From the NCBI RefSeq assembly GCF_965197445.1, contig NZ_CBDANE010000005.1, positions 1,067,369 to 1,131,368 of the forward strand: 64,000 nt of DNA, read 5' to 3'. The position numbers were made by a program, and so were the translations under genes. The notes under the pieces were generated by a model. It was not told the origin of the DNA, searched no databases, and saw only the letters and a list, made by a program, of their open reading frames with translations. Numbering within the stretch: the stretch's first letter is position 1; every line of letters starts with the position of its first letter. This document shows, piece by piece, positions 1 to 34,965 of the stretch. The stretch is from Candidatus Palauibacter sp. (GTDB taxonomy: Bacteria; Gemmatimonadota; Gemmatimonadetes; Palauibacterales; Palauibacteraceae).

Positions 1-23
1 CGCGGCCCACTCGAGGGCCGCGT

Positions 24-1915
24 TCATGCTGCCGCCGTGGGTTTCTGAAACTGCAGGCGGTGAAGCTGCGCGTAGAGGCCGCCCTGCTCGAGCAGAGTGT
101 CGTGCGTACCCGACTCGCTGATGCGCCCGCGGTGGAGGACGAGAATCCGGTCGGCTCCCTGAATCGTCGAGAGCCGGTGCGCGATGACGAGGCTCGTTCG
201 CCCCCGCATGAGATGCTCGAGCGCTGTCTGAATCTCCGCTTCGATCTGCGAGTCCACCGAACTGGTGGCTTCGTCGAGCAGCAGGATGGGCGGGTCGCCG
301 GCGAGGGCGCGCGCGAACGAGACGAGCTGCCGCTCGCCGACCGAAAGGTTGCCGCCCCTCTCGCTCAAAGGCTCGTCGTACTTTTTCGGCAGCCGCGCGA
401 GGTGGCGGTCGACCCCCACCTGCCGCGCCGCATCCCGAATCTCGGCCGTGCCGATTCCCTCCCGATCGAGCGAGATGTTATCCGCCGCGGTTCCGGAAAA
501 GAGATAGACGTCCTGCAGCACGAGTCCCATCCGATGGCGCAGGTCCGCGAGCCGCAGATCCCGAATGTCGACCCCGTCGAGCGTGATCCTGCCGCGCTGC
601 GGCTCGTAGAACCGCATCAGAAGGCTGAACAGCGTCGTCTTGCCGGCTCCGGTGGCCCCGACCACTGCCAGCCGCTGGCCCGGATCGGCTACGAAACTGA
701 TTCCGCGGAGTACCCAGCCATCGTCGGGCCCGTCCTGATCCAGCCTCCCCTCGGCGCCCTCCCAGGCCGCCGCGTTTGCCAGCGCGGGCGTCGTAATGCC
801 CGCCGCGTCCTCCTCCGGCGAGAGGTACCGGAACCACACGTCCTCGAACTCGATCCGGCCCTTCACGGCTGGCGGGAGCTCGACCGGACGGCGCGCATCC
901 TCGATCCCCGGGCTCTCGTCCAGGAGCCGAAAGATCCGCTCCGAACTCGCCATCGCACCCTGGAGGATGTTGTATTTCTCCGACAGATCCTGGATGGGAC
1001 GGAAGAACCGTCTCGCGTACTGGAGGAAGCCGGCGATCACTCCGATCGTCAGCGTCCCCTCGAGAGCCCGGCCGCCGCCGTACCAGATGATGAGGGCCAG
1101 CGCGACCGAAGCGAGCACCTCGATCACGGGGAAGAAGAGCGCGTAGTAGGTGATCGAGCGGAGATGCGCCTCGAGGTGATCGTCGTTGATCTCCCGGAAC
1201 CACCGCGTCGCCGTCCTCTCCTGGCGGAACAGCTGCACCACCCGGACTCCGGTGATCCGCTCCTGCAGGTAGGCGTTGATCCGCGCAAGCCGGACCCGGA
1301 TGTCGCGGTACGCCTCGCGGACCTTCTTCCGGAAGAGCCAGGCCGCGCCGAACACGAGCGGAAGCACCGCGAAGGTCACCAGGGCGAGCCGCCAGTCCAT
1401 GACCAGCATCGCCACCATGATGAAGGCGACGGTGAACACATCCCCGAAGATCGTGACGACGCCCGAGGTGAACATCTCGTTCAGGACCTCGACGTCGCTC
1501 GTGAGCCGGGTCATCAGCCGTCCGACCGGGTTCCGGTCGTAGTAGGCGAGCCGGAGGCGCTGGAGATGACGGAAGATCTCCTGCCGAAGGTCGAGCATCA
1601 CGTTCTGGCCGATCCACGTGGTGAGGATCGTGCGCGCGTACTCGAGTACGCCGGAGAGCAGGAGCGCGACGAAGAAGATGATCGCGAGGTTGCGGAGGGC
1701 GGCGAAGTCGCCGCGCGGGATGGCGCCGTCGATGACCTCCATGGTCAGCCAGGGGCCGACCAGCGCCAGGGCGGACGCCGCGATGAGCATGACCACGGCG
1801 ATCGCGACCCTGAGCCGGTAGGGCCTGAGGTAGGCGAGCAACCGCCTCATGAGGTGGGCGTCGTACGCCTTGCCGAGCGCTTCTTCTTCCTGGAGCGGGC
1901 CGTCGGGCGTTTGCA
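24..1915 (-). CDS. ABC transporter, fused permease/ATP-binding exporter (MsbA/lipid A exporter-like)
   Basis: The N-terminal half has the ABC exporter transmembrane domain (six predicted TM helices). The C-terminal half has Walker A GATGAGKTT, the signature LSVGERQ and Walker B ILLLDEAT. Start is set at the internal Met (MQTPDGPLQ...); the upstream in-frame extension to 2030 would overlap uvrA. An unusual ~35 aa insertion (SPEEDAAGITTPALANAAAWEGAEGRLDQDGPDDGW) lies between the FRY segment and the VLRGISF segment. Confidence 0.85.
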
Positions 1916-1991
1916 TGCCCCATAGTACGGACTGGGCCACTCCCTTCCAATCAGGTTGGCGCGGGTCCGCGCCGCCGGCCATCATCCTCAT

Positions 1992-4916
1992 ATGAGCGAC
2001 CGGATCAGGGTCCGAGGCGCCCGGCAGCACAACCTCAAGGGCGTCGACATCGATATCACGCGCGGGGCCCTCACGGTCCTCACGGGGCCTTCCGGCTCGG
2101 GGAAATCGAGCCTCGCCTTCGACACGATCTACGCCGAAGGGCAGCGCCGTTACATCGAGTCCCTCTCCACGTACGCGAAGCAGTTCCTCGAGCGGATGCC
2201 CAAGCCGGCCGTCGATCTCGTCGAAGGCGTGAGTCCCTCCGTCGCCATCGACCAGAACAACCGCGTCCAGTCGAGTCGTTCGACGGTGGGGACGATCACG
2301 GAAGTCTACGACTACCTGAGACTCCTCTGGGCCCGCGTCGGGACGACCGTATGCCCCGACTGCGAGCGCCCCGTCGTGCCGGACACGGTGACTTCGGCCA
2401 CCGACGCGCTGCTCGATCTGGGGTCGGAAGTTCGACTCGCCATAGCCTTCCCGGTCGCCCGCGAAGAGCGTGGAGCCGGCACCGGAGCTGTGGAGAACCT
2501 CACAGCGCGCGGCTATGTGCGGGTGCAGGCCGACGGCGACGAGATCTACCTGCCGGACATCGACCTCGAGGAGAGTGCGGGCGAGGACGCCGCTGGGGCG
2601 CTGACGCGGGCGACGGAGCTGCTCGTGGTGGTGGACCGCGTCGTGGCCCGGGAGGAGGACCGCGAACGGATCGCGGACTCACTCGCGGCCGCTTTTGCCG
2701 AAGGCGGTGGCGCCGCGGTGGCGCTAGCCTGGCGAAGGGGTTCGGAGACTCCGGAACGCCACGAGTTCGAGGAATCGTACCGGTGCGCGGCGTGCGGGCG
2801 CGGGTTCCCCCGACCGACGCCGGCGACGTTCAGTTTCAACAGTCCCGCCGGCGCGTGCGGCGTGTGCACCGGGTTCGGCGCGGTACTCGAATACTCGCCC
2901 CGCCTCATCGTCCCCGACCCCGGGCGTTCACTCGAAGCGGGGGCACTGGATCCCTGGGAGAAGCCTCGCTACTCCCGCGCCAGATCCCGGCTGCGAGGGT
3001 TCGCGCTGTCGGCAGGAGTCGACATGGCGGCCCCGTGGGAGACGCTTCCGGAGGGGGCGCGCGACGTTCTCATGCACGGAGGGACGTACGCCGGAGAGCG
3101 ATTCCGAGGAATGATTCCTTTCCTTCGTTCCAAGGAGAACAAGCGATACAAAGCGTACATCCGCGTCTTTCTCCGCCAGTATCAGCTCCCGAAGCGGTGC
3201 TCCGGCTGTGGCGGGACGCGGCTGAAGCCGGAGGCCATGAACGTCCGGGTGGGCGGCCGACATATCGCCGGAGTCGCCGGGCGCACCGTGGGCGAAATCG
3301 CCCGCTGGCTCTCGGAGGACCTCGATCTTCCGCCGTTCGGGCGCCAGGTGGCGGCGACCATCCTGCGCGAACTCGAGCACCGACTCTCGTTCCTGGCGCA
3401 AGTCGGTCTGGCGTACCTCACGCTGGACCGTCAGGCGCGATCGCTCTCCGGCGGGGAGATGCAGAGAATCCGGCTGGCCAGCTGCCTCGGGAGCCGGCTC
3501 GTGAACACGCTGTACGTACTCGATGAGCCGACGATCGGGCTTCACCCGTACGACATCGCGGCGTTTGCCGGCGTGCTCGAGCGACTCGCGGGCCGCGACA
3601 ATACCGTGCTGGTTGTCGAGCATGAACCATCGCTCCTCGAACGGGCCGACCGGATCGTGGAACTGGGCCCGCGCGCAGGGGAACAGGGGGGCGAAATCGT
3701 GTTCGAGGGTACGTGGGCGAGCCTGCTGGCGTCGGACACCGGTACCGGGCGGGCGCTGGCCCGCCGGGCGACGGGGGCGAGGTCGCGTGGGGACGAGCGC
3801 GGTGCGGATCGACCGGTCCGGCGGCACACCCGATCCGGCGGAGCGGCGACGACCGGGGAACTCGTCCTGCGCGGGGCCACGCTGCACAACGTCCGGGGCG
3901 TCGACGTGTCGATTCCCCTCGGGTCGCTTACGCTCGTGACCGGCGTCTCGGGATCCGGCAAATCGACGCTCGTGCGCGGGGTGCTCTTCCATGCGCTCGA
4001 GCAGGAAGTTGCCGGCCGGTCTTCGGCCAAGCCGCACCTCGGCGAACCCGCGGGCTCCTGGGATCGACTGGAGGGGGCCGAGTCTCTCGAGGATGTCGTA
4101 CTCGTCGACCAGCGGCCGATCGGGCGCACCCCGCGCTCGAACCCGGCCACCTACATCGGAGCATTCACACCTCTGCGCAGCGCGTACGCGGCCACACCCG
4201 AGGCGCGCGCCCGTGGGTACGAGGCGGGGTATTTCTCCTTCAACCGGGCGGGCGGCCGGTGCGAGCGGTGCAAGGGTGCGGGCGAGGAGACGGTGGAGAT
4301 GGTCTTCCTGGCGGATGTCTCCGTTCCCTGCGAGGCGTGCGACGGCTCGCGGTACCGTCCCGAAGTGCTGGAAATCGGGATCCGCGGCCGCTCGATCCGT
4401 GACGCGCTCGACATGACCGTCGACGAGGCGATCCGGTTCTTCATCCGCCACGATCGCCTGGGAGCGAAGTTGTGGCACCTGCAGCGGGTGGGCCTCGGCT
4501 ATCTGCGGCTGGGCCAGCCGGCGACGACCCTCTCCGGCGGCGAGGCGCAGCGACTGAAGATCGCACGTGAACTCGCGCGGCGGGGACGCGCCGGCAGGCG
4601 GCTCTACATCCTGGACGAACCCACCGTGGGGCTCGGTGTCGGCGAGGTCGGCACTCTGACCAGTGTGCTCCGCGAGCTGGTGGGGGAGGGCCACACCGTG
4701 GTCGTGGTGGAGCACAACCTCGACCTGGTCGCGGGCGCGGACTGGGTCATCGACATGGGGCCCGGGCCCGCGGACGACGGAGGGAGGATCGTGGCGGCGG
4801 GTCCGCCCGCCGCGATCGCCGAAGCCGATGGGTCCCGAACCGGAGTGTTCCTGAGGGCGCGCGCGGCCCGCCTCGAAGCGGACGCCCACGTTGCCGCGGC
4901 CGCGAGACCGGCGTGA
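1992..4916 (+). CDS. uvrA: Excinuclease ABC subunit A
   Basis: Two ABC ATPase modules ([12 protein letters not shown]... and [11 protein letters not shown]...), zinc-finger Cys pairs ([32 protein letters not shown]), and LSGGE signatures. Start taken at [15 protein letters not shown], a typical UvrA N-terminus. Confidence 0.9.
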
Positions 4917-5959
4917 GGGACGCGGCGGAACCGAGCGTCTCGGTCCTCCTGCCATGCCGCGATGCGGGACAGTTTCTCGGCGACTGCATCGAGAGCCTGC
5001 GGGCGCAGTCCGAGTCGCGTTTCGAGGTGCTCGCCCTGGATGACGGGTCGAGGGACCACACGGGTGCCCTGCTCCAGGCGTGGGCCGAGCGCGATTCGAG
5101 GGTGCGGCTCGTCGACCGCGACGGCTCGGGGATCGTGGCGGCGTTGCGGCGGCTGGCCCGCGAGGCGCGATCGCCGCTCATCGCCCGCATGGACGCGGAC
5201 GACATCGCACGCCCCGGACGGCTGGCCGCGCAGCTTCGCCTTCTGGCCCGGCGACCCGGCATCGCCGCGTGTGGGACGGGCGTCCGCTACTTCCCGCGCC
5301 CTCCCGCCGGCTCCGGCTATCGGCGCTACGAGGCGTGGCTCAACGGCCTGATCGATCCTGTCACGGTCGAGCGGAACCTGTTCGTCGAATGTCCCATCGC
5401 GCATCCCACTCTGATGGTGCGGCGCGACGCGTTCGAAGCGGTCGGCGGCTATCGCGAGACCGACGGACCGGAAGACTACGACCTGGTCCTGCGCCTTGCC
5501 GCCGAGGGGCACGGGCTGACCAACGTTCCGGAGACCCTGCACGAATGGAGGCTCGGCGCCCATCGGCTGTCGGAGCGGTCGGCACGCTACGGCGCCGATG
5601 CGTTCCGGAGCCTGAAGGTGTCTTTCCTGGCCGCCGGGCGCCTGCCGCGGGACCGGCCGCTCGTGATCTGGGGTGCCGGCAAGGTTGGAAAAGCCTTCGC
5701 CCGCGCCTGGCTGAGGCAGCCCGCGCCCAGAGGCTCGATGGTCCCGATCGCCGCGTTCGTCGATCTGGATCCGCGCAAGATCGGACAGAACATCCACGGG
5801 GCCGTCGTCATCAGACCCGAAGCGCTCCCGGAGTTCGCCGCCCCCGTCCGCCCGTATGTGCTGCTCGCGGTGGGGTCGCCCGGAGCCCGCCGCGAGATCC
5901 GGGAGGCGCTCGACGCCATGGATTACCGGGAGATCGAGGACTATCGAGCCGTGGCCTGA
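4913..5959 (+). CDS. Glycosyltransferase family 2 with a C-terminal extension domain
   Basis: N-terminal GT-A fold motifs (SVLLPCRD, LALDDGSRD, DADD). GTG start overlaps the uvrA stop (GTGA). Confidence 0.7.
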   Translation: MRDAAEPSVSVLLPCRDAGQFLGDCIESLRAQSESRFEVLALDDGSRDHTGALLQAWAERDSRVRLVDRDGSGIVAALRRLAREARSPLIARMDADDIARPGRLAAQLRLLARRPGIAACGTGVRYFPRPPAGSGYRRYEAWLNGLIDPVTVERNLFVECPIAHPTLMVRRDAFEAVGGYRETDGPEDYDLVLRLAAEGHGLTNVPETLHEWRLGAHRLSERSARYGADAFRSLKVSFLAAGRLPRDRPLVIWGAGKVGKAFARAWLRQPAPRGSMVPIAAFVDLDPRKIGQNIHGAVVIRPEALPEFAAPVRPYVLLAVGSPGARREIREALDAMDYREIEDYRAVA

Positions 5960-25894: not shown

Positions 25895-28165
25895 CTACAG
25901 CCGGGCGCGGCGCAGGCGGTTCGCGTTGGTGACGACGGAGATCGAACTCAGCGCCATCGCGGCCTCGGCGATGACGGGATGCAGGAGGCCCAGGAAGGCG
26001 ACGGGGATCGCGACCACGTTGTAGACATAGGCCCAGAAGAGGTTCTCGCGGATCTTGCGAAACGTGGCCTTGGCGAGCCGGGTCGCGCGGAGCACGGAGC
26101 GCAGGTCGCCCTGGACCAGTGTGATGTCCGCGGCCTCGATCGCGATGTCGGTGCCGGTGCCTACCGCGAGGCCGACATCCGCCGCCTTGAGCGCGGGGGC
26201 GTCGTTGATGCCGTCGCCCACGAACGCCACGGTGCGGCCCTCGGCGCGCAGTTGCCGTACGGCGTAGACCTTCTGGGCGGGGAGCAGACCGGCCTGGTAG
26301 TCGTCGATCCCGAGTTGCTGCGCGACGGCGGCCGCCACGGCCTCGCGGTCGCCGGTGAGCATGACGGTCCGGAAGCCGCGGCGGCTCAGCTCGAGGAGGG
26401 TCTCCCGTGCGTCCTCCTTCACGGGGTCGGCGATCGCGATCGCGCCCCGCAGCCGCCCGCCGGCGGCCACGCAGGCGATCGTTCGCGCGTCCGACCCGAA
26501 GCGTCGTTCCACTTCCACGATGTCCTCGCGCGCGACGCCTTCCGCCCGCAGGAGCCGCGTGCTGCCCACCACGACCCACTCCCCGTCGACGACGCCCACG
26601 ATGCCCATGCCGACCCGGGCCTCCACGTCGCTCGCCCGCGCCACACGGGCGCCGCGGCGGCCGGCTTCCTCCACCACCGCGCGGGCAAGGGGGTGCTCCG
26701 AGGCGTCCTCGATCGAAGCGGCGAGTCCGAGCACCCGGGTCTCGTCGTCGGCCGGGTCCCCCATCGCATACACCTCGACCACGCGCGGAGCACCGCGGGT
26801 CAGCGTCCCCGTCTTGTCGAACACGAGCGTGTCCGCCCGGTCCAGCGTCTGGACGGCGGCCCCGTCCCGGATGAGGACGCCGCGCGTCGCCCCGACGCCG
26901 GTGCCGACCATGAGCGCCGTGGGCGTCGCGAGCCCCAGCGCGCACGGACACGCGATCACCAGCACCGCCACCGCGGCGAAGAGCGCGAGCGAGAGGCGGC
27001 CCAGCTCCGGGTTCACCCAGGGGAGGAAGCCCGACGCCCAGCGGGCGGCGTCGAAGAAGACACCCGGCAGCACGAACCAGCCCGCGAACGCCGCCAGCGC
27101 CACGACCAGGATCGCGGGCACGAAGACGGCCGTCACCCGGTCGGCGAACTCCTGGATCGGAACCTTGCTCGCCTGCGCCTCCTCCACGAGGCGGATGACG
27201 TTCGACAGGAAGGTGTCCTCGCCCACTCCCGTGGCTCTCACGCGCAGGACGCCCGAGTGGTTCACGGTCGAACCCAGTGCGCTGTCCCCCGGTCCTTTCT
27301 CCACCGGAATCGACTCCCCCGTCGCGAGCGATTCGTCGACCGCGCTCCGTCCGTCGAGGACGACTCCGTCGGTGGGGATCTTCTCGCCCGGCCGGATGAT
27401 CATGATGTCGCCCACCCGCACGTCACGGGTCGGGACCTCGAGTTCGGTGCCGTCCCGTTCGACGCGGGCGGTCGGAGCCTCGAGCGAGAGCAGGGCCTGG
27501 ATGGCGGAAGAGGAGCGGCCGCGGGCCTTCGCCTCGACGAAGCGTCCCGTGAGGTGGATGGAGGCGATCATCGCGCCGACGGGGGCAAAGTTCATGATCA
27601 TCGGCGCGAGTCCCAACACGTGCAGGACGGCCCACACACCGGTGAGCACGGAAACGCCGGCTCCGAGGGCGATAAGGACATCCATATTGGGCATCCGGCC
27701 CCGCGCCGAACGCCAGGCGCCGCGCACGGTGTCCGCGCCCGGCCCGGCGAGCACGGCGGCCCCCAGCGCAGTCACCCCCAGGTCGAAGGCGAGGGGGGAC
27801 GGCCAGCGTACGCCCGCGAACATCTCGGGCAACATCCATACCATGGCCGGGGCGGTGAGCGCCCACGCGGTCCACATCGTCCGCCACGCCTGGTGCGAGC
27901 GGGCCTCCGTATCCGCGAGGCGCTTGCGTTCGGCCTCTCCGCGGTCCGCCTCCGCTATGGGTTCGATCTCGTACCCGGCCCGTTCGACCGCTGCGGCGAG
28001 TTCCTCGAACCCGATCTCGCGGGTGAGCGTCACCGTGGCGGACTCGGCCGGCAGGCTCACGGACGCTTCCACGCCGTCGATGGCGTTGAGACTCTTCTCG
28101 ACGGAGCCCACGCAGCCGGCGCAGTGCATCCCGTTGATCCGGTAGGTCTTCTTCACCTGCTCCAT
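25895..28165 (-). CDS. copA: Copper-translocating P1B-type ATPase
   Basis: N-terminal HMA domain with GMHCAGC, the membrane CPC motif (CPCALGLATP), DKTGTLT phosphorylation site, and GDGINDAPAL. Confidence 0.9.
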   Translation of the reverse strand: MEQVKKTYRINGMHCAGCVGSVEKSLNAIDGVEASVSLPAESATVTLTREIGFEELAAAVERAGYEIEPIAEADRGEAERKRLADTEARSHQAWRTMWTAWALTAPAMVWMLPEMFAGVRWPSPLAFDLGVTALGAAVLAGPGADTVRGAWRSARGRMPNMDVLIALGAGVSVLTGVWAVLHVLGLAPMIMNFAPVGAMIASIHLTGRFVEAKARGRSSSAIQALLSLEAPTARVERDGTELEVPTRDVRVGDIMIIRPGEKIPTDGVVLDGRSAVDESLATGESIPVEKGPGDSALGSTVNHSGVLRVRATGVGEDTFLSNVIRLVEEAQASKVPIQEFADRVTAVFVPAILVVALAAFAGWFVLPGVFFDAARWASGFLPWVNPELGRLSLALFAAVAVLVIACPCALGLATPTALMVGTGVGATRGVLIRDGAAVQTLDRADTLVFDKTGTLTRGAPRVVEVYAMGDPADDETRVLGLAASIEDASEHPLARAVVEEAGRRGARVARASDVEARVGMGIVGVVDGEWVVVGSTRLLRAEGVAREDIVEVERRFGSDARTIACVAAGGRLRGAIAIADPVKEDARETLLELSRRGFRTVMLTGDREAVAAAVAQQLGIDDYQAGLLPAQKVYAVRQLRAEGRTVAFVGDGINDAPALKAADVGLAVGTGTDIAIEAADITLVQGDLRSVLRATRLAKATFRKIRENLFWAYVYNVVAIPVAFLGLLHPVIAEAAMALSSISVVTNANRLRRARL

Positions 28166-28172
28166 ACCTGGT

Positions 28173-28454
28173 TCATTTGCCCGCGAACCGCATGAACAGC
28201 TGCGCGATCTCCTCGCGCACCCGTGTTGCGGCGTCGCCGCCCTCCTCGATCGCGTGCGTGGCGCACCGTTCGAGGTGGTTCATCAGAAGCTCCTTCTCGG
28301 CCGAGCGGAGAGCGGAGTGAACGGCGGCGAACTGCTGCAGGATGTCAGGACAGTACCGCTCGTCCTCCACCATACGGGCGATGCCCCCGACCTGTCCCCG
28401 GATACGGGCCAGCCGACGGTCGAGGTCGTGCTTCGTCCCCTCCGCGATCCCCAT
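28173..28454 (-). CDS. csoR: Copper-sensing transcriptional repressor, CsoR/RcnR family
   Basis: Family fold with the RYCPDIL Cys and a C-terminal His/Cys (HLERC). Start at MGIAEGTK. Directly upstream of copA. Confidence 0.8.
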   Translation of the reverse strand: MGIAEGTKHDLDRRLARIRGQVGGIARMVEDERYCPDILQQFAAVHSALRSAEKELLMNHLERCATHAIEEGGDAATRVREEIAQLFMRFAGK

Positions 28455-28529
28455 CGCATGCGCCCCTGCACCGCTCACCGCCATTCACTCCGTACGCTCT
28501 GCCGAGCATAGATGCTCTTCCACGAGATT

Positions 28530-28551: not shown

Positions 28552-28634
28552 TGATCGCAAGACGACGGAGCAGAGGCGGGCGGTGACGCGCGGACGGTGG
28601 CGGCGTTTTGCCGGGGGCTGCTAAACTCAGGCCC

Positions 28635-29303
28635 ATGTTCAAGAAATTCAGGCAGATGGTCGACGACGTGCTCGACCGCATGGAAGCGAAGCATGACGGG
28701 GTCTCGGAAGATGACATCGACCGGGTCATCCACGCCATGCGAGAGGAACTCGTCGAGACCCGGGCGCGGATCACCGAACTGGAAGCGTTGCTCGAGTCGC
28801 AGGTGCGCCAGGCCGACCATGAGAAAAACGCGGCCAGCACCGCCGAACGAAGGGCGGCGAGGGCGGCCGAGATCGGGGATGCGGAGACGGTCGAAGTGGC
28901 GAACCGCTTCGCGGCCCGGCACCGGCAGCGGCTCGAGGTACTCGTCGTCAAGGCCGAGGCGACCCAGGCCGAAATCCTCCAGCACAAGGACGAGGCGGCG
29001 CAGGGCGCCGAGCAGTTGAAGAGCGCGATGGCGCGCCGCGACTCGCTGTCCGTCCAGCAGCGCCGCGCGCGGGCGATCGGGCACTCCGCGGGCCGTTTCG
29101 ACTCGGTCGATGCGTTCGATCGCATGGCTGACAAGATGGCAAGCCGGACCGATCTCGACGAAGCGCAGCGAGAGGTCGAGAGCGAGTTGAACCCGTCCGC
29201 CGGCGCCCCGCGCCGCGACTTCGCGGCCGAGCGCGAACTGCGGGAGGCGCGGGCCGACGCCATGCTCGAGGAGTTGAAGCGCCGGATGTCGAAAGGGAAG
29301 TAG
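28635..29303 (+). CDS. pspA: PspA/IM30 family protein (phage shock protein A)
   Basis: MFKKFRQMVDDVLDRME N-terminus and a long coiled coil, ~220 aa. Confidence 0.8.
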   Translation: MFKKFRQMVDDVLDRMEAKHDGVSEDDIDRVIHAMREELVETRARITELEALLESQVRQADHEKNAASTAERRAARAAEIGDAETVEVANRFAARHRQRLEVLVVKAEATQAEILQHKDEAAQGAEQLKSAMARRDSLSVQQRRARAIGHSAGRFDSVDAFDRMADKMASRTDLDEAQREVESELNPSAGAPRRDFAAERELREARADAMLEELKRRMSKGK

Positions 29304-29334: not shown

Positions 29335-30834
29335 ATGGACCTGCTGACGATCGCCGTATTCGGCTATCCGCTCATCCTGATCGGGATCGGGCTGTGGCGC
29401 TCCCGGCAGATCAAGAGCCACGCGGATTTCATGGTCGCCGGCCGAAACGTGCCCGTGACCCTCCTCGTCGGCACGCTGATCTGCACCTGGATCGGGTCCG
29501 GATCGCTGTTCGCAGGGGCCGGGCTCGCGTACCGTACCGGCATCGCCGAGTTGTGGTTCTCGTTCGGAGCCTGGGCGGGGCTGCTCGTCGCCTTCTATCT
29601 CGCGCCGCGTGTCCGCGCGATCGCGAAGTACACGGTCCCGGACCTCCTGGAGCAGCGCTACAATGCGGCGGCTCGCGTTCTGGGCACCGTCGCGATCATC
29701 CTCGCCTACGTGACGATCGCCGCCTACCAGTTCCGGGGCGGCGGCTGGATCCTGAGCATCGTGACCGACGGCGCGATCTCGCCCACGACCGGAATGATCA
29801 TCACCGCCGTGACCATCGTGGCGTTCACGGCGCTCGCCGGCATGGTGTCGATCGTCTCGGTGGACCTCCTGAACGGGATCATCATCACCCTCGGCATCAT
29901 CATCGGCCTCCCCTATCTCGTGCTCTCAAACGGCGGGGTCGAGGCCATCGCGGCCGGGCTGCCCGAGGGGCACCTCACCATGTTGGGGGGGCACAACATC
30001 CTCTGGGTCCTCGGCGTAGCCATGCCCACCTTCCTCCTCATCCTGGGCGAGAGCGGGATGTACCAGAAGTTCTTCTCCGCCAAGGACGCGGGGTCCGCCA
30101 AGAAGGCGGTAGTCGGGATGTTCGTCGGCGTGGTTTTCATCGAGACTACGCTGGCCCTGATGGCGATCGTCGGGCGTGCGGTGTTCCCCGAACTGGCGGA
30201 TCCGGAGCAGGTCTCATTGGTCGGCCGGGCCGCGTCGGAGACGGTCATCCTCTACATCGCTGCCAACGGATTGCCGGTGATCGGCGGCGCGATCCTCCTC
30301 GCGGCGGCTGTCGCGATCGTGCTCTCGACGGGCAATACGTTCCTGCTCGTGCCGTCCACCAACGTGAGCCGCGACCTGTACGAGCGCTTCGTCGATCCGG
30401 ACGCCAGCGAAGGGATGAAGCTGGGAGTGCAGCGTCTCTGCATCGTCCTGTTCGGCGGCCTGGGGCTCGTGCTGCTGACGCAGTTCGACACCGTGCTCTC
30501 GATGGCGCTGTACGCCTACTCACTCGTGGGGGCGAGCTTGACGCCGGCCCTGCTCGCGGCCTTCCTGTGGCGCCGCGTGACGCCACAGGGTGGCGTGGCG
30601 TGCATCGCGGGAGGACTCGGGAGCATCGTCGGGATCGCGGTCCTTTCCCGGTTCGGGATGAACTTCACGGCCATGATCGGGGAGACGCCGTTCGACTTCG
30701 CCTCGAGCGACTACATCGTGATCCCCGGCGTCATCATCTCGCTGGGACTGCTGATCGTGGTGAGCCTGCTGACGCCGCCTTCGCCCGAGGAGAAGTGGGC
30801 GCCCTTCTTCCAGAAGAACCCGGAACGGCTCTAG
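29335..30834 (+). CDS. Sodium:solute symporter (SSS family)
   Basis: 13 TM helices; SSS signature region (GRNVPVTLLVGTLICTWIGSGSLFAGAGLAY). Confidence 0.85.
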   Translation: MDLLTIAVFGYPLILIGIGLWRSRQIKSHADFMVAGRNVPVTLLVGTLICTWIGSGSLFAGAGLAYRTGIAELWFSFGAWAGLLVAFYLAPRVRAIAKYTVPDLLEQRYNAAARVLGTVAIILAYVTIAAYQFRGGGWILSIVTDGAISPTTGMIITAVTIVAFTALAGMVSIVSVDLLNGIIITLGIIIGLPYLVLSNGGVEAIAAGLPEGHLTMLGGHNILWVLGVAMPTFLLILGESGMYQKFFSAKDAGSAKKAVVGMFVGVVFIETTLALMAIVGRAVFPELADPEQVSLVGRAASETVILYIAANGLPVIGGAILLAAAVAIVLSTGNTFLLVPSTNVSRDLYERFVDPDASEGMKLGVQRLCIVLFGGLGLVLLTQFDTVLSMALYAYSLVGASLTPALLAAFLWRRVTPQGGVACIAGGLGSIVGIAVLSRFGMNFTAMIGETPFDFASSDYIVIPGVIISLGLLIVVSLLTPPSPEEKWAPFFQKNPERL

Positions 30835-30837
30835 TCC

Positions 30838-31872
30838 TCAGGCGAGCAGGCCGCGGAGTTCGTCGAGCTTGCCCGGAGGGCCCAGGACGACGAGGTGGTC
30901 GCCGGGACGCACCCGTTCCCCTGGCCCCGGGTTGTAGAGGAAGCGTTCGCCCCCTTCGTCCGTCTCGCTCCGCTGGATCGCGACGACGAGTGACCCGGTC
31001 CTGGCCGGAATCGCGGCTTCGGCCAGCGTGAGCCCGGCAAGTTCCGAAGTCGGGGACACGAGCAACTGCTCGAGAAGGAGCTCCAGGCCGTCTTCGCCGG
31101 GTACGTCGACGAAGAGCGTCACATCGGGGCGCAGTACGAGCGAGGCCATCTGAACGCCGCCCGTCGCGTTGGGGGTGACGACGCGGTCGGCACCGGCCTT
31201 CTTCAGCTTCCCCACCGAAGGCTCCGACCGGGCCCGGCCCACGATGGTCAGATTCGGGTTCAGCTCCCGCGCCGCCAGACAGACGAAGGCGTTGTCGGTG
31301 TCCGCGCTGAGTGCGGCGATGAGCCCCCGGGCGCGGGCGATGCCCGCCGCCGCCAGAGCCTCGTCACTCGTCGCATCGTCTTCGATGATGAGTGCGTTCG
31401 GGTCCAGCTGCCGTGCGTGCGCGACCTGCTGCGGGTCGCTCTCGATGGCGACGTAAGGGTCGCCACGGGCGACGAACCTCTTGATCGCGTGGATTCCGGT
31501 ACGGCCCGCGCCGCACAGGATCACGTGGTCCTTGATGCGCTCGATCCTCTTCATCGTTCTGCGTTTCGTGAATGCGTGGGTCAGGTCCATCTCGACGAGT
31601 GTCGCGGTAATGAGGGCGAACCAGATCGCGAGCGTGACGATGCCGCCGCCGATCAGGAAACTCGCAAAGAGGCGGCCGCCGGGCGTCAGGGTCTGGATCT
31701 CACCGTATCCGACCGCCGAGACCGTAATCGCGGTCATGAAGAAGGCGTCCGACAGGTTCCAGCCCGGCATGAGGGAGAAGCCGATCGTCCCGACCACGAC
31801 GAGGCCCGCCGTAAAGAAGACGGCCCCCAGCAGGCGGTTCCTGAAGCGGGAGAAGTCCGGCAGGCAGCACAT
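30838..31872 (-). CDS. Potassium channel with RCK (TrkA-N/TrkA-C) gating domains (MthK-like)
   Basis: Two TM helices flanking a pore helix with the selectivity filter TVSAVGYGE. Followed by a Rossmann-type RCK domain (VILCGAGRTG) and a TrkA-C domain. Confidence 0.8.
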   Translation of the reverse strand: MCCLPDFSRFRNRLLGAVFFTAGLVVVGTIGFSLMPGWNLSDAFFMTAITVSAVGYGEIQTLTPGGRLFASFLIGGGIVTLAIWFALITATLVEMDLTHAFTKRRTMKRIERIKDHVILCGAGRTGIHAIKRFVARGDPYVAIESDPQQVAHARQLDPNALIIEDDATSDEALAAAGIARARGLIAALSADTDNAFVCLAARELNPNLTIVGRARSEPSVGKLKKAGADRVVTPNATGGVQMASLVLRPDVTLFVDVPGEDGLELLLEQLLVSPTSELAGLTLAEAAIPARTGSLVVAIQRSETDEGGERFLYNPGPGERVRPGDHLVVLGPPGKLDELRGLLA

Positions 31873-33515
31873 CAGCCGCGTGCCGCGCCACGGTCGAGTC
31901 GGGCCACGACCTGTCGGCCCTTGATCATGCGGCCGTCGAGACCGCGGACGACCTCGTCGGCCACGAGCGAATCGACGTCGACGAGCGTGAAGTTCTGGCG
32001 GATGTCGATGCGCCCGATCTGTCCGCCGGCCGCGCCGGTCTCGCCCGTGATCGCGCCGACGAGGTCGCCGGGGCCGGCGTCGTCCCGCTTGCCCACGCCG
32101 ACGAAGACCCGGGTCCAGGTCGGACGGGTCGCGCGTTCGGCGCTCGCGTCGGAGCGGGGGGCAGGGCGGTCGGCCGCAGGGGCTTCAGCGCTCGTGTCGG
32201 CGCGGTCCGTCGCACGGAGCAGGCCGGCGAGGGCGCCGGCAACGCGCGGGGCTCCGTGCGCTTCGATCAGCGGCGCGAGCAGCAGGGCGCCGCTGGCCAG
32301 GTCCTGCTGCTCGATGGCTTCCGAGACGCGGGCCCGGAAGGCCGCGACCTCGTCCATCAGATCGGGATCCGCCCGCTCGGCGAGGGGCGTCACGGACCGC
32401 CCGGCCCGGGCCACGGTCAGCTCCAGTTGCCGCTCGTGCAGCGTGTCGACGATGGCGTAGCAGCGATCGGCGCCCTCGACCGCGCGGGCGAGGAGCGCCG
32501 GCGTGGGCGGCAGCCCGAGGACGACCGCGTCCGGGGCTGGCTCGACCTGGCCCCACGCGCCGATCCGCACGGGGTGGTCGACGCCGGCTGCGGGCACATC
32601 GATGCCGGCCACCGAGAGGGCCGCGCGTACCTCGTCGATGGCGGCGGGAGCCGTTTCGACGCTGACGGCGGTCCCGGCGTCGGCCCGGGCGATGTCGTGG
32701 AGCAGCTCGGCCAGGCGGGCCAGTCGCCCTGCTCGCGTGGCCCGGCTCGCGACGGCGATCGGCCCGCCGGACACCCGGCCCGCACCCGGCGCCGTGGCGC
32801 CCGGCTCTCCGAACAGTTCGTTCGGCCACCGGCGCGCGCGCGGCAACCGGCGGACGATCAACTCGTCGAACGCCGCATCGCGGGCGTGGGTCGTCGCGAT
32901 CCGGCGAGCCCCTTCGTCGGAGGCCTGCAAGATCGCCTCGACGGCGGCCCGCGCCGGCTCCAGCGCCCGCACGTCGTCGAGGACCAGGGTGCAGATCGCC
33001 GACGCGGGGATGTCACCTTTCCGGACCGCCTCGAGGAGTGGGGCCGGCGGCCCCACGAGGACAGGGGCCTGGTGGGCGGCGTCCGGCGTGGACCCCGGCG
33101 CGACGATCACAACGTTGTGCCCGGCTTCTCGAACCGCCTCGTACATGCGAGCCGCGCAGCGCCGCGCGCGGTCGACGGATGCGGTGAGCACGAAGACGCG
33201 CCCATCGGCGGCCGCGGACTCCAGGTCTCGCGTCGCGGCCGCGGCATAGAGCTGCGCGAGCCCCGCGCCTTCAGCGGCGACGAGCGCGAGGTGGCGCCCG
33301 CGCTCGACCGCCGCCGCGAGGGCCTCGAGCGCTTCCGGCGCCGCGACCGTCTCGACCGAATCCTCCGACTGGTCCTGATTCAAGGGCGGGATCTCGCGAA
33401 GAAGGTGGACAAGGGTCGTGAGTGGGCTTCCGTCCGGATCGCTGGCAAGGTACGCAAGGCGTCGATCCGCCCAAAGAGTGCCTCGGCCCGACGATGCCCC
33501 TCGGAGGCCCTCCAC
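31872..33515 (-). CDS. Degenerate (probably ATPase-dead) DEAD-box/DbpA-like protein with an intact C-terminal DbpA RNA-binding domain
   Basis: C-terminal ~75 aa matches the DbpA RBD (RVFVGVGKRDDAGPGDLVGAITGE…RIDIRQNFTLVDV). The RecA-like core keeps its spacing, but motif I is AEGAGLAQ with no GKT, motif II is LVLDDVRAL (DEAD to DDVR), and motif VI is VRIGAWGQ. Its stop overlaps the start of the K+ channel gene. Confidence 0.55.
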   Translation of the reverse strand: MEGLRGASSGRGTLWADRRLAYLASDPDGSPLTTLVHLLREIPPLNQDQSEDSVETVAAPEALEALAAAVERGRHLALVAAEGAGLAQLYAAAATRDLESAAADGRVFVLTASVDRARRCAARMYEAVREAGHNVVIVAPGSTPDAAHQAPVLVGPPAPLLEAVRKGDIPASAICTLVLDDVRALEPARAAVEAILQASDEGARRIATTHARDAAFDELIVRRLPRARRWPNELFGEPGATAPGAGRVSGGPIAVASRATRAGRLARLAELLHDIARADAGTAVSVETAPAAIDEVRAALSVAGIDVPAAGVDHPVRIGAWGQVEPAPDAVVLGLPPTPALLARAVEGADRCYAIVDTLHERQLELTVARAGRSVTPLAERADPDLMDEVAAFRARVSEAIEQQDLASGALLLAPLIEAHGAPRVAGALAGLLRATDRADTSAEAPAADRPAPRSDASAERATRPTWTRVFVGVGKRDDAGPGDLVGAITGETGAAGGQIGRIDIRQNFTLVDVDSLVADEVVRGLDGRMIKGRQVVARLDRGAARG

Positions 33516-33624
33516 GTTGACGTTGACGTCGGCGCCGACGCTGGTCTAACGTCACCCCTCCACGCGCCGCGGCCCGCCCGCGGGCTCTCTCCGGATTTCT
33601 CAGCACGAGGCGAACGCGATTCCC

Positions 33625-34965
33625 GTGATCCAGGCCCTGGAGACAATTCAGGCGTGGGTATGGGGGGTGCCGCTCATCATCCTCCTTCTCATGACGGGCC
33701 TCGTGTACACCTTTCTCCTGCGGGGCCTCCAGTTCCGCCGCCTGTGGCATGCGCTCTGGCTCGCGCTCGTGAAGCGACGCGAGCCCGATGGCGAGGGCGA
33801 CATCTCACACTTCCAGGCGCTGATGACGGCCCTCGCCGCCACCGTTGGCACCGGCAACATCGTGGGTGTCGCGACCGCCATCGGCGCCGGAGGCCCCGGC
33901 GCGCTGTTCTGGATGTGGGTCACGGGGCTGCTCGGGATGGCGACGAAGTACGCGGAGGCGGTGCTCGGCGTCCGCTACCGGGAGACGGACGCCCGGGGCG
34001 AGAAGGCCGGCGGCCCCATGTACTACCTCGAACACGGGCTGGGCCGCGGTGGGCTGGGCCGGGGCCTGGCCATCGCCTTTGCCGCCTTCGCGACGCTCGC
34101 CGCGTTCGGGATCGGCAACGGCGTCCAGTCGCAGGCGGTCGCGGACGCGATGAACGAGTCGTTCGGCGTTCCGCACTGGATCGTGGGCCTCGTCACCGCG
34201 GCCGCGGTCGGCCTCGTCATCATCGGCGGCATCCGTTCCATCGGCCGTGTGGCGAGCGTGATCGTGCCGACGATGATCGTCCTCTACATGGGCGCCGCCG
34301 GTCTCGTGCTCATCTCCAACGCGGCGGAGATCCCGGCCGCTTTCGGGCTCGTGTTCGAGCACGCCTTCGGTGGGCGGGCGATGGCGGGTGGCGCCCTCGG
34401 CTACACCGTCCTGCAGGCCATGCGGTTCGGGGTCGCGCGCGGGATCTTCTCGAACGAGTCGGGGCTGGGGACGGGGGCCATCGTCGCTGCGGCCGCCCAG
34501 ACCCGGGAACCCGTACGGCAGGCGCTCGTGTCGATGACCCAGACCTTCATCGACACCATCGTCGTCTGCACCCTCACGGGACTCGCGATCCTCACCACGG
34601 GGGCGTGGAGCTCCGGCGCCGAGGGCGCCAACATGACGCAGATGGCCTTCGACACGGGTCTCCTCTCGGGTGCCGGAAACATCGTGGTGGCGCTGGGTCT
34701 CGCCACCTTCGCGTTCAGCACGATGCTCGGGTGGTCCTACTACGGGGAGCGGAGCTTCGCGTACCTGCTCGGCGAGCGCGTGATCAAACCGTACCGTCTG
34801 GCCTTCGTGCTCGTGGTGGGTTTGGCCGCCGTCGTGGAACTGGATGTCGTGTGGCTGGTCTCCGACATCCTCAACGGCCTCATGGCGGCTCCCAACCTCG
34901 TGGGCCTGCTCCTGCTGTCAGGCGTCGTGTGGCGGGAGACGCGGAGCTACTTCGGCCGCAGATAG
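33625..34965 (+). CDS. Alanine/glycine:cation symporter (AGCS family)
   Basis: AGCS signature HFQALMTALAATVGTGNIVGVATAI and 11 TM helices. Confidence 0.85.
   Translation: MIQALETIQAWVWGVPLIILLLMTGLVYTFLLRGLQFRRLWHALWLALVKRREPDGEGDISHFQALMTALAATVGTGNIVGVATAIGAGGPGALFWMWVTGLLGMATKYAEAVLGVRYRETDARGEKAGGPMYYLEHGLGRGGLGRGLAIAFAAFATLAAFGIGNGVQSQAVADAMNESFGVPHWIVGLVTAAAVGLVIIGGIRSIGRVASVIVPTMIVLYMGAAGLVLISNAAEIPAAFGLVFEHAFGGRAMAGGALGYTVLQAMRFGVARGIFSNESGLGTGAIVAAAAQTREPVRQALVSMTQTFIDTIVVCTLTGLAILTTGAWSSGAEGANMTQMAFDTGLLSGAGNIVVALGLATFAFSTMLGWSYYGERSFAYLLGERVIKPYRLAFVLVVGLAAVVELDVVWLVSDILNGLMAAPNLVGLLLLSGVVWRETRSYFGRR

Follow-up and report, generated by a model that had tools for sequence, protein, structure and literature searches.

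Gene organization of the locus

We examined a 64,000-nucleotide stretch of a Candidatus Palauibacter genome (the window; contig NZ_CBDANE010000005.1, positions 1,067,369 to 1,131,368, GC content ~69%) in which a gene for a degenerate DEAD-box protein, here called the pseudo-helicase, directly precedes a gene for a membrane channel with RCK domains. A preliminary description of this gene pair had taken the first protein for a catalytically dead helicase that still binds RNA and had raised two possibilities, an RNA- or ribosome-sensing module formed with the channel or a decaying paralogue. Both genes lie on the reverse strand:

31872..33383, reverse strand: pseudo-helicase coding sequence, 503 aa from a predicted TTG start at 33383, with the stop codon TGA at 31872-31874
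31870..31874, reverse strand: TGATG junction, in which the pseudo-helicase TGA and the channel ATG share one base
30838..31872, reverse strand: channel coding sequence (two transmembrane segments, 2TM, plus RCK), 344 aa, downstream of the pseudo-helicase gene

The longest mechanical open reading frame (ORF) of the pseudo-helicase gene starts at a GTG at 33515 (31872..33515, reverse strand) and gives the 547 aa quoted in the preliminary description. However, translation most likely begins at the TTG at 33383 and yields 503 aa, since a 99%-identical database protein (P0001) is 503 aa long, independent gene callers chose the same TTG (including on the contig encoding P0001), and this TTG and the following codons are kept in 9 of the 9 closest loci aligned, with the coding pattern fading upstream. 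We therefore dropped the 547-aa start, and all residue numbers of motifs and domains below refer to the 503-aa protein. The overlap of the pseudo-helicase stop with the channel start, already reported in the preliminary description, is exactly 1 nt (GGCTGATGTGC, read as GGC TGA TG TGC). A scan of positions 30500-33900 for sigma-70 promoters and intrinsic terminators returned none, including no terminator-like site between the two genes, although such a scan is uninformative for a Gemmatimonadota genome of 70% GC.

A DEAD-box fold without DEAD-box motifs

Searches of the 547-aa ORF against Pfam and NCBIfam gave the DbpA RNA-binding domain as the sole match, with no DEAD or Helicase_C. The match to PF03880 covers aa 469-539 of that ORF and model positions 1-71 of 72 (E 3.5e-21, 75.5 bits versus a cutoff of 25.6). 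In its N-terminal part, the protein shows homology to the cores of DEAD-box proteins. When a profile built from 55 family members was searched against the PDB, DbpA (7pli) was the best match (E 4.7e-34), with further matches to CshA, MjDEAD, DeaD, Hera and eIF4A. An AlphaFold2 (AF2) model built from the family alignment (mean predicted local distance difference test score, pLDDT, 87.5; predicted template modelling score, pTM, 0.73) contains two alpha/beta RecA-like domains followed by an extension of three helices, a disordered linker and an RRM-like domain, and DbpA, Hera and CshA rank first when this model is compared with the PDB using Foldseek. Two RecA-like domains with DEAD-box topology are thus present, and both the RecA-like core organization and the intact DbpA-type C-terminal domain of the preliminary description are borne out. 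The features of the core and of the helices that follow it are:

32814..33335, reverse strand: RecA1-like domain with degenerate motifs, aa 17-190
Q motif (canonical PTxIQ): absent
33255-33278, reverse strand: Walker A remnant AAEGAGLA (canonical AxxGxGKT), aa 36-43, without Lys or Thr
In the RecA1-like domain, reverse strand: motif Ia position ASVDRA (canonical PTRELA)
In the RecA1-like domain, reverse strand: motif Ib position PPAP (canonical TPGR)
32967-32978, reverse strand: motif II position DDVR (canonical DEAD), aa 136-139
In the RecA1-like domain, reverse strand: motif III position THA (canonical SAT)
32811-32846, reverse strand: clade-specific conserved LPRARRWPNELF, RecA1-like domain
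32379..32771, reverse strand: trimmed RecA2-like domain, aa 205-335, with ~20 aa around the QxxR helix missing
In the RecA2-like domain: motif IV position VSVETA
32547-32570, reverse strand: motif V strand remnant VRIGAWGQ (canonical TDVAARG), aa 272-279, with the motif V loop deleted
32463-32498, reverse strand: motif VI position ALLARAVEGADR (canonical HRxGRxGR), aa 296-307
32193..32366, reverse strand: helical extension, aa 340-397, three helices in the AF2 model, resembling the CshA/DeaD dimerisation domain

The P-loop lysine and threonine, the glutamate of DEAD and the arginines of motif VI are all gone from the window protein, and from this loss we infer that it has lost both the binding and the hydrolysis of ATP. 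The preliminary description had likewise found every ATPase and helicase signature degenerate, which agrees with AAEGAGLA, DDVR and THA at motifs I, II and III and with the loss of motifs V and VI. It had, however, read VRIGAWGQ as motif VI. The alignment to CshA, the family alignment and the order of secondary-structure elements instead put VRIGAWGQ at the motif V strand and ALLARAVEGADR at motif VI; both are degenerate and the conclusion is unchanged.

The whole-protein profile alignment to CshA (5ivl) extends to profile position 396, that is, through the helical extension. When a profile of this segment was searched by itself, its two best PDB matches were CshA (E 0.006) and DeaD (5gi4, E 0.019), which are weak but specific. 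Since the extension aligns with the dimerisation region of CshA and DeaD, the ancestor was more likely a dimeric helicase of the DeaD/CshA/Hera type than a monomer of the DbpA/YxiN type.

Motif loss is shared by the family and the gene is under purifying selection

A word-indexed search recovered 82 clusters at 90% identity, 28-99% identical and with the ORF intact, and the organism names attached to them are all Gemmatimonadota or Candidatus Palauibacter. For synteny we used 79 loci from a scan of a genome collection, in which the family members are all found in Gemmatimonadota metagenome-assembled genomes (MAGs) except for one labelled Akkermansiaceae. This locus (L022, CAXMRU010000139.1) looks like a typical Gemmatimonadota locus and its protein is nearly identical to that of L025, so the MAG is probably mis-binned. 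Four actinobacterial DeaD homologues are the sole intact DEAD-box proteins in the 79-locus set.

The preliminary description had suggested checking whether the motif loss is conserved in orthologues, and it is: in a motif table over 70 loci, the loss is common to all Gemmatimonadota relatives examined and none has an intact set. An exhaustive profile search gave 603 clusters at 50% identity with E <= 1e-30. Among the best 144 new representatives at this identity, motif VI is found in none, GKT, DEAD and motif VI are all lost in 132, and 9 keep only GKT. Altogether, the degenerate state is found in over 150 clusters defined at 50% identity. One subclade (L049, L052, L057, L064, L065, L067, L069, L073-L075 and L079) keeps the Q motif and GSGKT and has lost motifs II, III, V and VI, and may represent an intermediate stage that binds ATP without hydrolysing it; the channel adjoins the pseudo-helicase gene in none of its loci.

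We estimated the ratio of nonsynonymous to synonymous substitution rates (dN/dS) by the Nei-Gojobori method in nine closely related pairs. The values are 0.10-0.26 for RecA1, 0.20-0.51 for RecA2, 0.06-0.60 for the helical extension and 0.00-0.10 for the RNA-binding domain (RBD), showing that every domain is under purifying selection, which is very strong on the RBD. As in a pseudohelicase, the helicase fold is kept, the catalytic motifs are non-functional by sequence and the gene is under selection.

In databases, family members are called 'DbpA RNA binding domain-containing protein', and six of them (P0062, P0071, P0076, P0143, P0199 and P0228) are named 'ATP-dependent RNA helicase DeaD' by JGI/IMG despite the missing motifs. 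The latter label is a misleading annotation error that propagates.

The best-conserved residues of the C-terminal domain correspond to RNA-contacting elements of Hera and YxiN

The core and helical extension are followed by a linker and the RBD:

32124..32192, reverse strand: linker, aa 398-420, low-confidence (pLDDT <50 at aa 398-412), poorly conserved and of variable length
31893..32123, reverse strand: DbpA-type RRM-like RBD, aa 421-497, PF03880
32040-32072, reverse strand: near-invariant RBD helix PGDLVGAITGE
32001-32021, reverse strand: near-invariant RBD strand QIGRIDI

The invariant columns of the family fall in PGDLVGAITGE (helix alpha1) and QIGxI (strand beta2). The RBD-RNA structures of Hera and YxiN have a single contact in common, in which the backbone of the V/I-G-x-V/I strand recognises a guanine; additional nucleotides pack against alpha1 (PMC3695512). 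Because the best-conserved residues of the family are the RNA-contacting elements of Hera and YxiN, the RBD is predicted still to anchor the protein to structured RNA, and we regard RNA binding by the pseudo-helicase through this domain as quite probable.

Gene order and evolution of the junction

We searched the 79 loci for the channel by tblastn, using the window channel as query. The channel lies downstream of the pseudo-helicase on the same strand in 40 loci, down to ~29-31% pseudo-helicase identity, and is the most frequently retained same-strand neighbour; at least 23 loci are without it. In 17 of these 40, an opposite-strand gene for a 94-aa HU-family protein (Bac_DNA_binding) stands between the two genes, as independent gene calls agree, and in the other 23, which include the window, HU is absent from this place and the channel directly abuts the pseudo-helicase. 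Uninterrupted adjacency of the two genes is not kept across relatives. At the direct-junction loci the extrapolated channel start lies -17 to +47 bp from the pseudo-helicase stop, except in L031, where the open frame runs past the stop. These results divide the claim of co-transcription made in the preliminary description: it is plausible in this lineage, given the 1-nt overlap in the window and junctions of ~0-37 bp in 10 Palauibacter-clade loci, but does not extend to the loci where HU intervenes. Likewise, the synteny check suggested there finds the channel downstream in about half of the loci, often with HU between, and each family occurs without the other, which does not support the proposal that the two genes form a conserved functional module. 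The pairing appears to be only partly conserved, and RNA or ribosome sensing by the channel would be speculation.

HU is convergent with the pseudo-helicase and directly downstream of it in ~45 of the 79 loci, including all channel-less clades (e.g. L039:2689-2973 and L086:3578-3862, both on the reverse strand). This arrangement, pseudo-helicase > < HU, is the commonest layout and the most widespread adjacency, with the channel beyond HU in some clades. We found no HU gene in the whole 64-kb window.

Bootstrapped neighbour-joining trees were built for both proteins. Loci with a direct junction are nested in HU-containing clades, with bootstrap values of 98-100% for the channel and 70-100% for the pseudo-helicase: L031/L034 fall inside the L029/L022/L025/L024 clade (98-100% in the channel tree), whereas L054/L059 form the sister group of L039/L042/L045 (100%). 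In addition, separate cases are seen in the Palauibacter clade and at L015-17/L032, L013, L035 and L048. Since direct-junction loci are scattered within HU-containing clades in both trees, loss of HU followed by tight juxtaposition of the two genes occurred independently at least four times.

The two genes also part company. In channel-less clades that have the pseudo-helicase and HU, unrelated genes take the channel's place (YdjM, a GAF histidine kinase, an M6 peptidase), and L019 has lost the channel and the sodium/solute symporter (SSF) gene and kept the pseudo-helicase. A 47%-identical channel was found in another context without a pseudo-helicase, and the channel relatives of Vicinamibacterales, also without one, come after an APC permease near SNF and Na+/alanine symporters or stand beside an MscS gene. 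In two of these Vicinamibacterales loci, L085 (bases 1-5071) and L088 (255-6074), the channel directly follows the APC amino-acid permease, which the gene caller missed at L085:2326-3990. As a Na+/alanine symporter adjoins the channel locus in both Acidobacteriota and Gemmatimonadota, the gene order hints that Na+-coupled amino-acid transporters may be the real functional neighbours of the channel. The surroundings of the gene pair are syntenic in the same loci as well, with a Na+/alanine (AGCS) symporter, an aminotransferase, SerA, a PspA-like gene, CsoR and CopA. With so much of the neighbourhood syntenic, adjacency by itself says little and partly reflects inherited gene order.

The downstream channel

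The channel has the architecture of a 2TM pore followed by a C-terminal RCK (TrkA_N and TrkA_C), and the preliminary description was correct in calling it MthK-like:

31594-31809, reverse strand: Ion_trans_2 pore (Pfam)
31699-31725, reverse strand: selectivity filter T-V-S-A-V-G-Y-G-E, channel aa 50-58
31546-31563, reverse strand: RRTMKR (aa 104-109) with Met107, kept in nearly all orthologues
31171-31524, reverse strand: TrkA_N (Pfam), RCK N lobe
31495-31512, reverse strand: GAGRTG (GxGxxG dinucleotide-fold motif) in the RCK
30844-31071, reverse strand: TrkA_C (Pfam), RCK C lobe

It matches MthK (1lnq) with E 3.7e-24 over aa 21-342 and GsuK (4gx5) with E 1.4e-28, and shares with both the 2TM pore and the RCK N and C lobes. 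It differs from the MthK/GsuK type in its filter, which is AVGYG in the Palauibacter clade instead of the canonical TVGYG, a change of Thr to Ala. Most other Gemmatimonadota orthologues have the second Gly replaced (GY[E/Q/S/N]), and channel relatives of ~40% identity, the named members of which belong to Vicinamibacterales, have TVGY[R/K]E. There is a large group of RCK channels with such non-canonical filters.

By its sequence, the window channel is likely K+-selective, and the GxGxxG motif makes a nucleotide the more likely RCK ligand, rather than Ca2+. In MthK, an internal start codon yields soluble RCK subunits. Met107 of the window channel stands at the same position as this internal start, which suggests that the channel may use an MthK-like strategy of two products.

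Flanking genes and the intergenic region

Upstream of the pseudo-helicase gene lies an intergenic region shared with a divergent symporter gene, and further genes lie beyond the channel:

33384..33624, no strand assigned: intergenic region, putatively regulatory, between the pseudo-helicase gene and the divergent Na+/alanine symporter gene
33519-33553, in the intergenic region: inverted repeat GACGTT-N23-AACGTC, a single occurrence in the window
~33440-33470, in the intergenic region: block CTTTGG..CCTTGCGTACCTT
33625-34965, forward strand: Na+/alanine symporter gene, divergent neighbour of the pseudo-helicase gene
29335-30834, forward strand: Na+/solute symporter (SSF) gene, convergent with the channel gene
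28608-29303, forward strand: PspA-like gene, between the SSF symporter and CsoR/CopA genes
25895-28484, reverse strand: CsoR-type metal repressor and CopA-like P-type ATPase genes, downstream

Both the inverted repeat and the CTTTGG..CCTTGCGTACCTT block are kept in Palauibacter-clade loci and diverged in L010, and they may form an operator or promoter. The channel and SSF genes end 3 bp apart (30834-30838), too close for terminators to fit, and no terminator is predicted there. On the upstream side, the source contig has a gene for a PIN-domain protein, together with SerA and a class-V aminotransferase; the genes of the neighbourhood are ordinary ones, syntenic in many loci. An Rfam scan of the whole 64-kb window gave no match, and a tRNA scan found none.

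A proposed ATP-independent RNA-binding pseudo-helicase and its alternatives

We consider it moderately probable that the window protein is an ATP-independent RNA-binding pseudo-helicase, probably dimeric, that is merely co-expressed with the channel here. It would descend from a DEAD-box protein of the DeaD/CshA/Hera type, with the order RecA1, RecA2, dimerisation helices and DbpA-type RBD; catalysis would have been lost and the gene maintained by selection across the Gemmatimonadota lineages sampled. In this protein, the RBD would provide the anchor to structured RNA, and the dead core together with the dimerisation helices would make an ATP-independent scaffold, clamp or placeholder, probably a dimeric one, with a role on ribosomal or other structured RNA resembling that of Utp25 or of the ATPase-dead DbpA R331A. 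Utp25 is a pseudohelicase with a DEAD-box fold whose motifs are dispensable, and it is an essential non-enzymatic ribonucleoprotein (RNP) component (PMC9539457). DbpA R331A is ATPase-dead and dominant negative, stalls 45S particles and stays bound to pre-50S (PMC4911913, PMC8536315). As for the channel, HU would have been lost in the lineage of the window and, as separate events, in three or more other lineages, after which the channel start would have moved to the pseudo-helicase stop, so that the channel probably now shares a transcript with the pseudo-helicase and is translationally coupled to it. We infer that the operon is a derived arrangement, one that gives co-expression and does not demonstrate a physical or regulatory partnership.

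Several observations weigh against this interpretation. The net charge of the window RBD is ~-1 and the pI of the full protein is 5.3, whereas the RBDs of true DeaD proteins in our set are net positive and that of E. coli DbpA is much richer in Lys and Arg; given its charge, the RBD could have been repurposed. The RNA-binding motifs of the core are degenerate too, and the similarity of the helical extension to dimerisation domains is weak (E 0.006 and 0.019). Finally, an operon with the same channel gene formed at least four times, with junctions of ~50 bp or less. If co-expression did not matter, one would expect less recurrence than this, which makes a functional link conceivable.

That link is central to an alternative in which the pseudo-helicase serves the RCK-gated channel as a cytoplasmic sensor or a regulatory subunit and couples RNA or ribosome status to K+ flux, either by binding the RCK ring or through localised translation of the channel. 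The one-base overlap of stop and start in the window fits this idea, as do the retention of the channel as the most retained same-strand neighbour (40/79 loci, to ~29% identity), the recurrent origin of the tight junction after HU loss and the absence of the channel from every locus of the subclade that keeps Walker A. However, HU on the opposite strand puts the two genes into separate transcription units in 17 of the 40 loci, several clades keep the pseudo-helicase and HU with unrelated genes in place of the channel, L019 lost the channel, related channels in Acidobacteriota and elsewhere stand beside transporters or MscS without a pseudo-helicase, and adjacency in a wholly syntenic neighbourhood can be inherited order. 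We therefore hold this alternative to be unlikely. We see a slimmer chance that the protein is an RNA- or ribosome-binding partner of the channel and that the recurrent coupled operon reflects selection for stoichiometric co-production, which would tie K+ flux to the state of cellular RNA or of ribosome assembly. We know of no ion channel for which such coupling has been described.

The remaining alternatives concern the protein itself. The acidic character of the protein and of its RBD, set against the positive charge of canonical RBDs, together with the degenerate RNA-binding motifs Ia, Ib, IV and V of the core, would be compatible with a DbpA-type domain repurposed away from RNA, in a protein scaffold or nucleoid-associated factor perhaps tied to the convergent HU, whose pairing with the pseudo-helicase is the most widely conserved adjacency (~45 loci). 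We find this distinctly improbable, as the best-conserved residues, in alpha1 and the IGxI strand, are those that contact RNA in Hera and YxiN, the Pfam match spans 71 of the 72 model positions, and convergence with HU, which is absent from the window, does not imply co-regulation. It is more doubtful still, and very improbable, that the core is a cryptic enzyme that binds or hydrolyses nucleotide through non-canonical residues: RecA1 is well conserved (dN/dS 0.1-0.26) and nucleotide binding may persist in the subclade with the Q motif and GSGKT, but the window protein is without the P-loop Lys and Thr, the DEAD Glu and the motif VI Arg, and its motif V loop is deleted. Least credible of all is the decaying paralogue of the preliminary description, a lineage-specific helicase copy turning into a pseudogene. 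Although all catalytic motifs are lost and the trimmed RecA2 is the least constrained domain, 82 clusters have an intact ORF, the same degenerate state recurs in over 150 clusters at 50% identity, dN/dS is well below 1 in every domain, the family alignment gives a confident AF2 model and no relative in the phylum has an intact motif set. We rejected it on the grounds of intact ORFs, purifying selection and family-wide motif loss.

Relation to known systems and significance

The proposed ATP-independent RNA-binding pseudo-helicase can be set beside several characterized proteins. The dimeric helicases DeaD/CsdA, CshA and Hera have the same domain order and fold, and the PF03880 RBD is common to them and the window protein. 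Unlike them, the window protein has lost motifs Q, I, II, III, V and VI, and is acidic, with a shortened RecA2; with the motifs lost and RecA2 shortened, it cannot be an ATP-driven unwinder. Among proteins of the DbpA/YxiN type, which are specific for hairpin 92 of 23S rRNA, DbpA is the best overall match in sequence and structure (7pli), and the RBDs share the GA(I/L)TG helix and the IGxI strand with that of the window protein. Unlike the latter, these proteins are monomeric, active ATPases with strongly basic RBDs and no helical extension, and at several positions where the DbpA RBD is basic, the window RBD has acidic or neutral residues. The eukaryotic Utp25/Def of the small-subunit (SSU) processome likewise combines a DEAD-box fold with non-functional motifs and offers a conceptual precedent, but it has no DbpA RBD, is not directly related, and has an experimentally shown role, whereas the window family is known from sequence.

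The family has been touched on before. Lopez-Ramirez et al. (2011) mentioned, with the data not shown there, proteins of Gemmatimonas aurantiaca that have a DbpA RBD without a recognisable DEAD or Helicase_C domain (PMC3093544), and these are very probably of the same family as the window protein. They were described as small genes containing mainly the RBD, with the degenerate core, the phylum-wide conservation and the gene context unrecognised, and we found no earlier description of these three aspects in the literature searched. Nor did we find a published bacterial DEAD-box pseudo-helicase in that literature, and for pseudohelicases carrying a DbpA domain, or for links between DbpA and a K+ channel, Utp25 was the only relevant result.

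Among RNA helicases, DEAD-box proteins form the largest family and, to our knowledge, their bacterial members have all been treated as ATP-driven remodellers. The repeated formation of an operon with a channel of non-canonical filter is a testable lead and not a result. The family itself would be a phylum-wide, selected lineage that has kept the fold and the RNA-targeting domain and discarded catalysis, and it may thus serve as a natural experiment on the function of a helicase scaffold that works without ATP, be it clamping, acting as a placeholder or recruiting partners.

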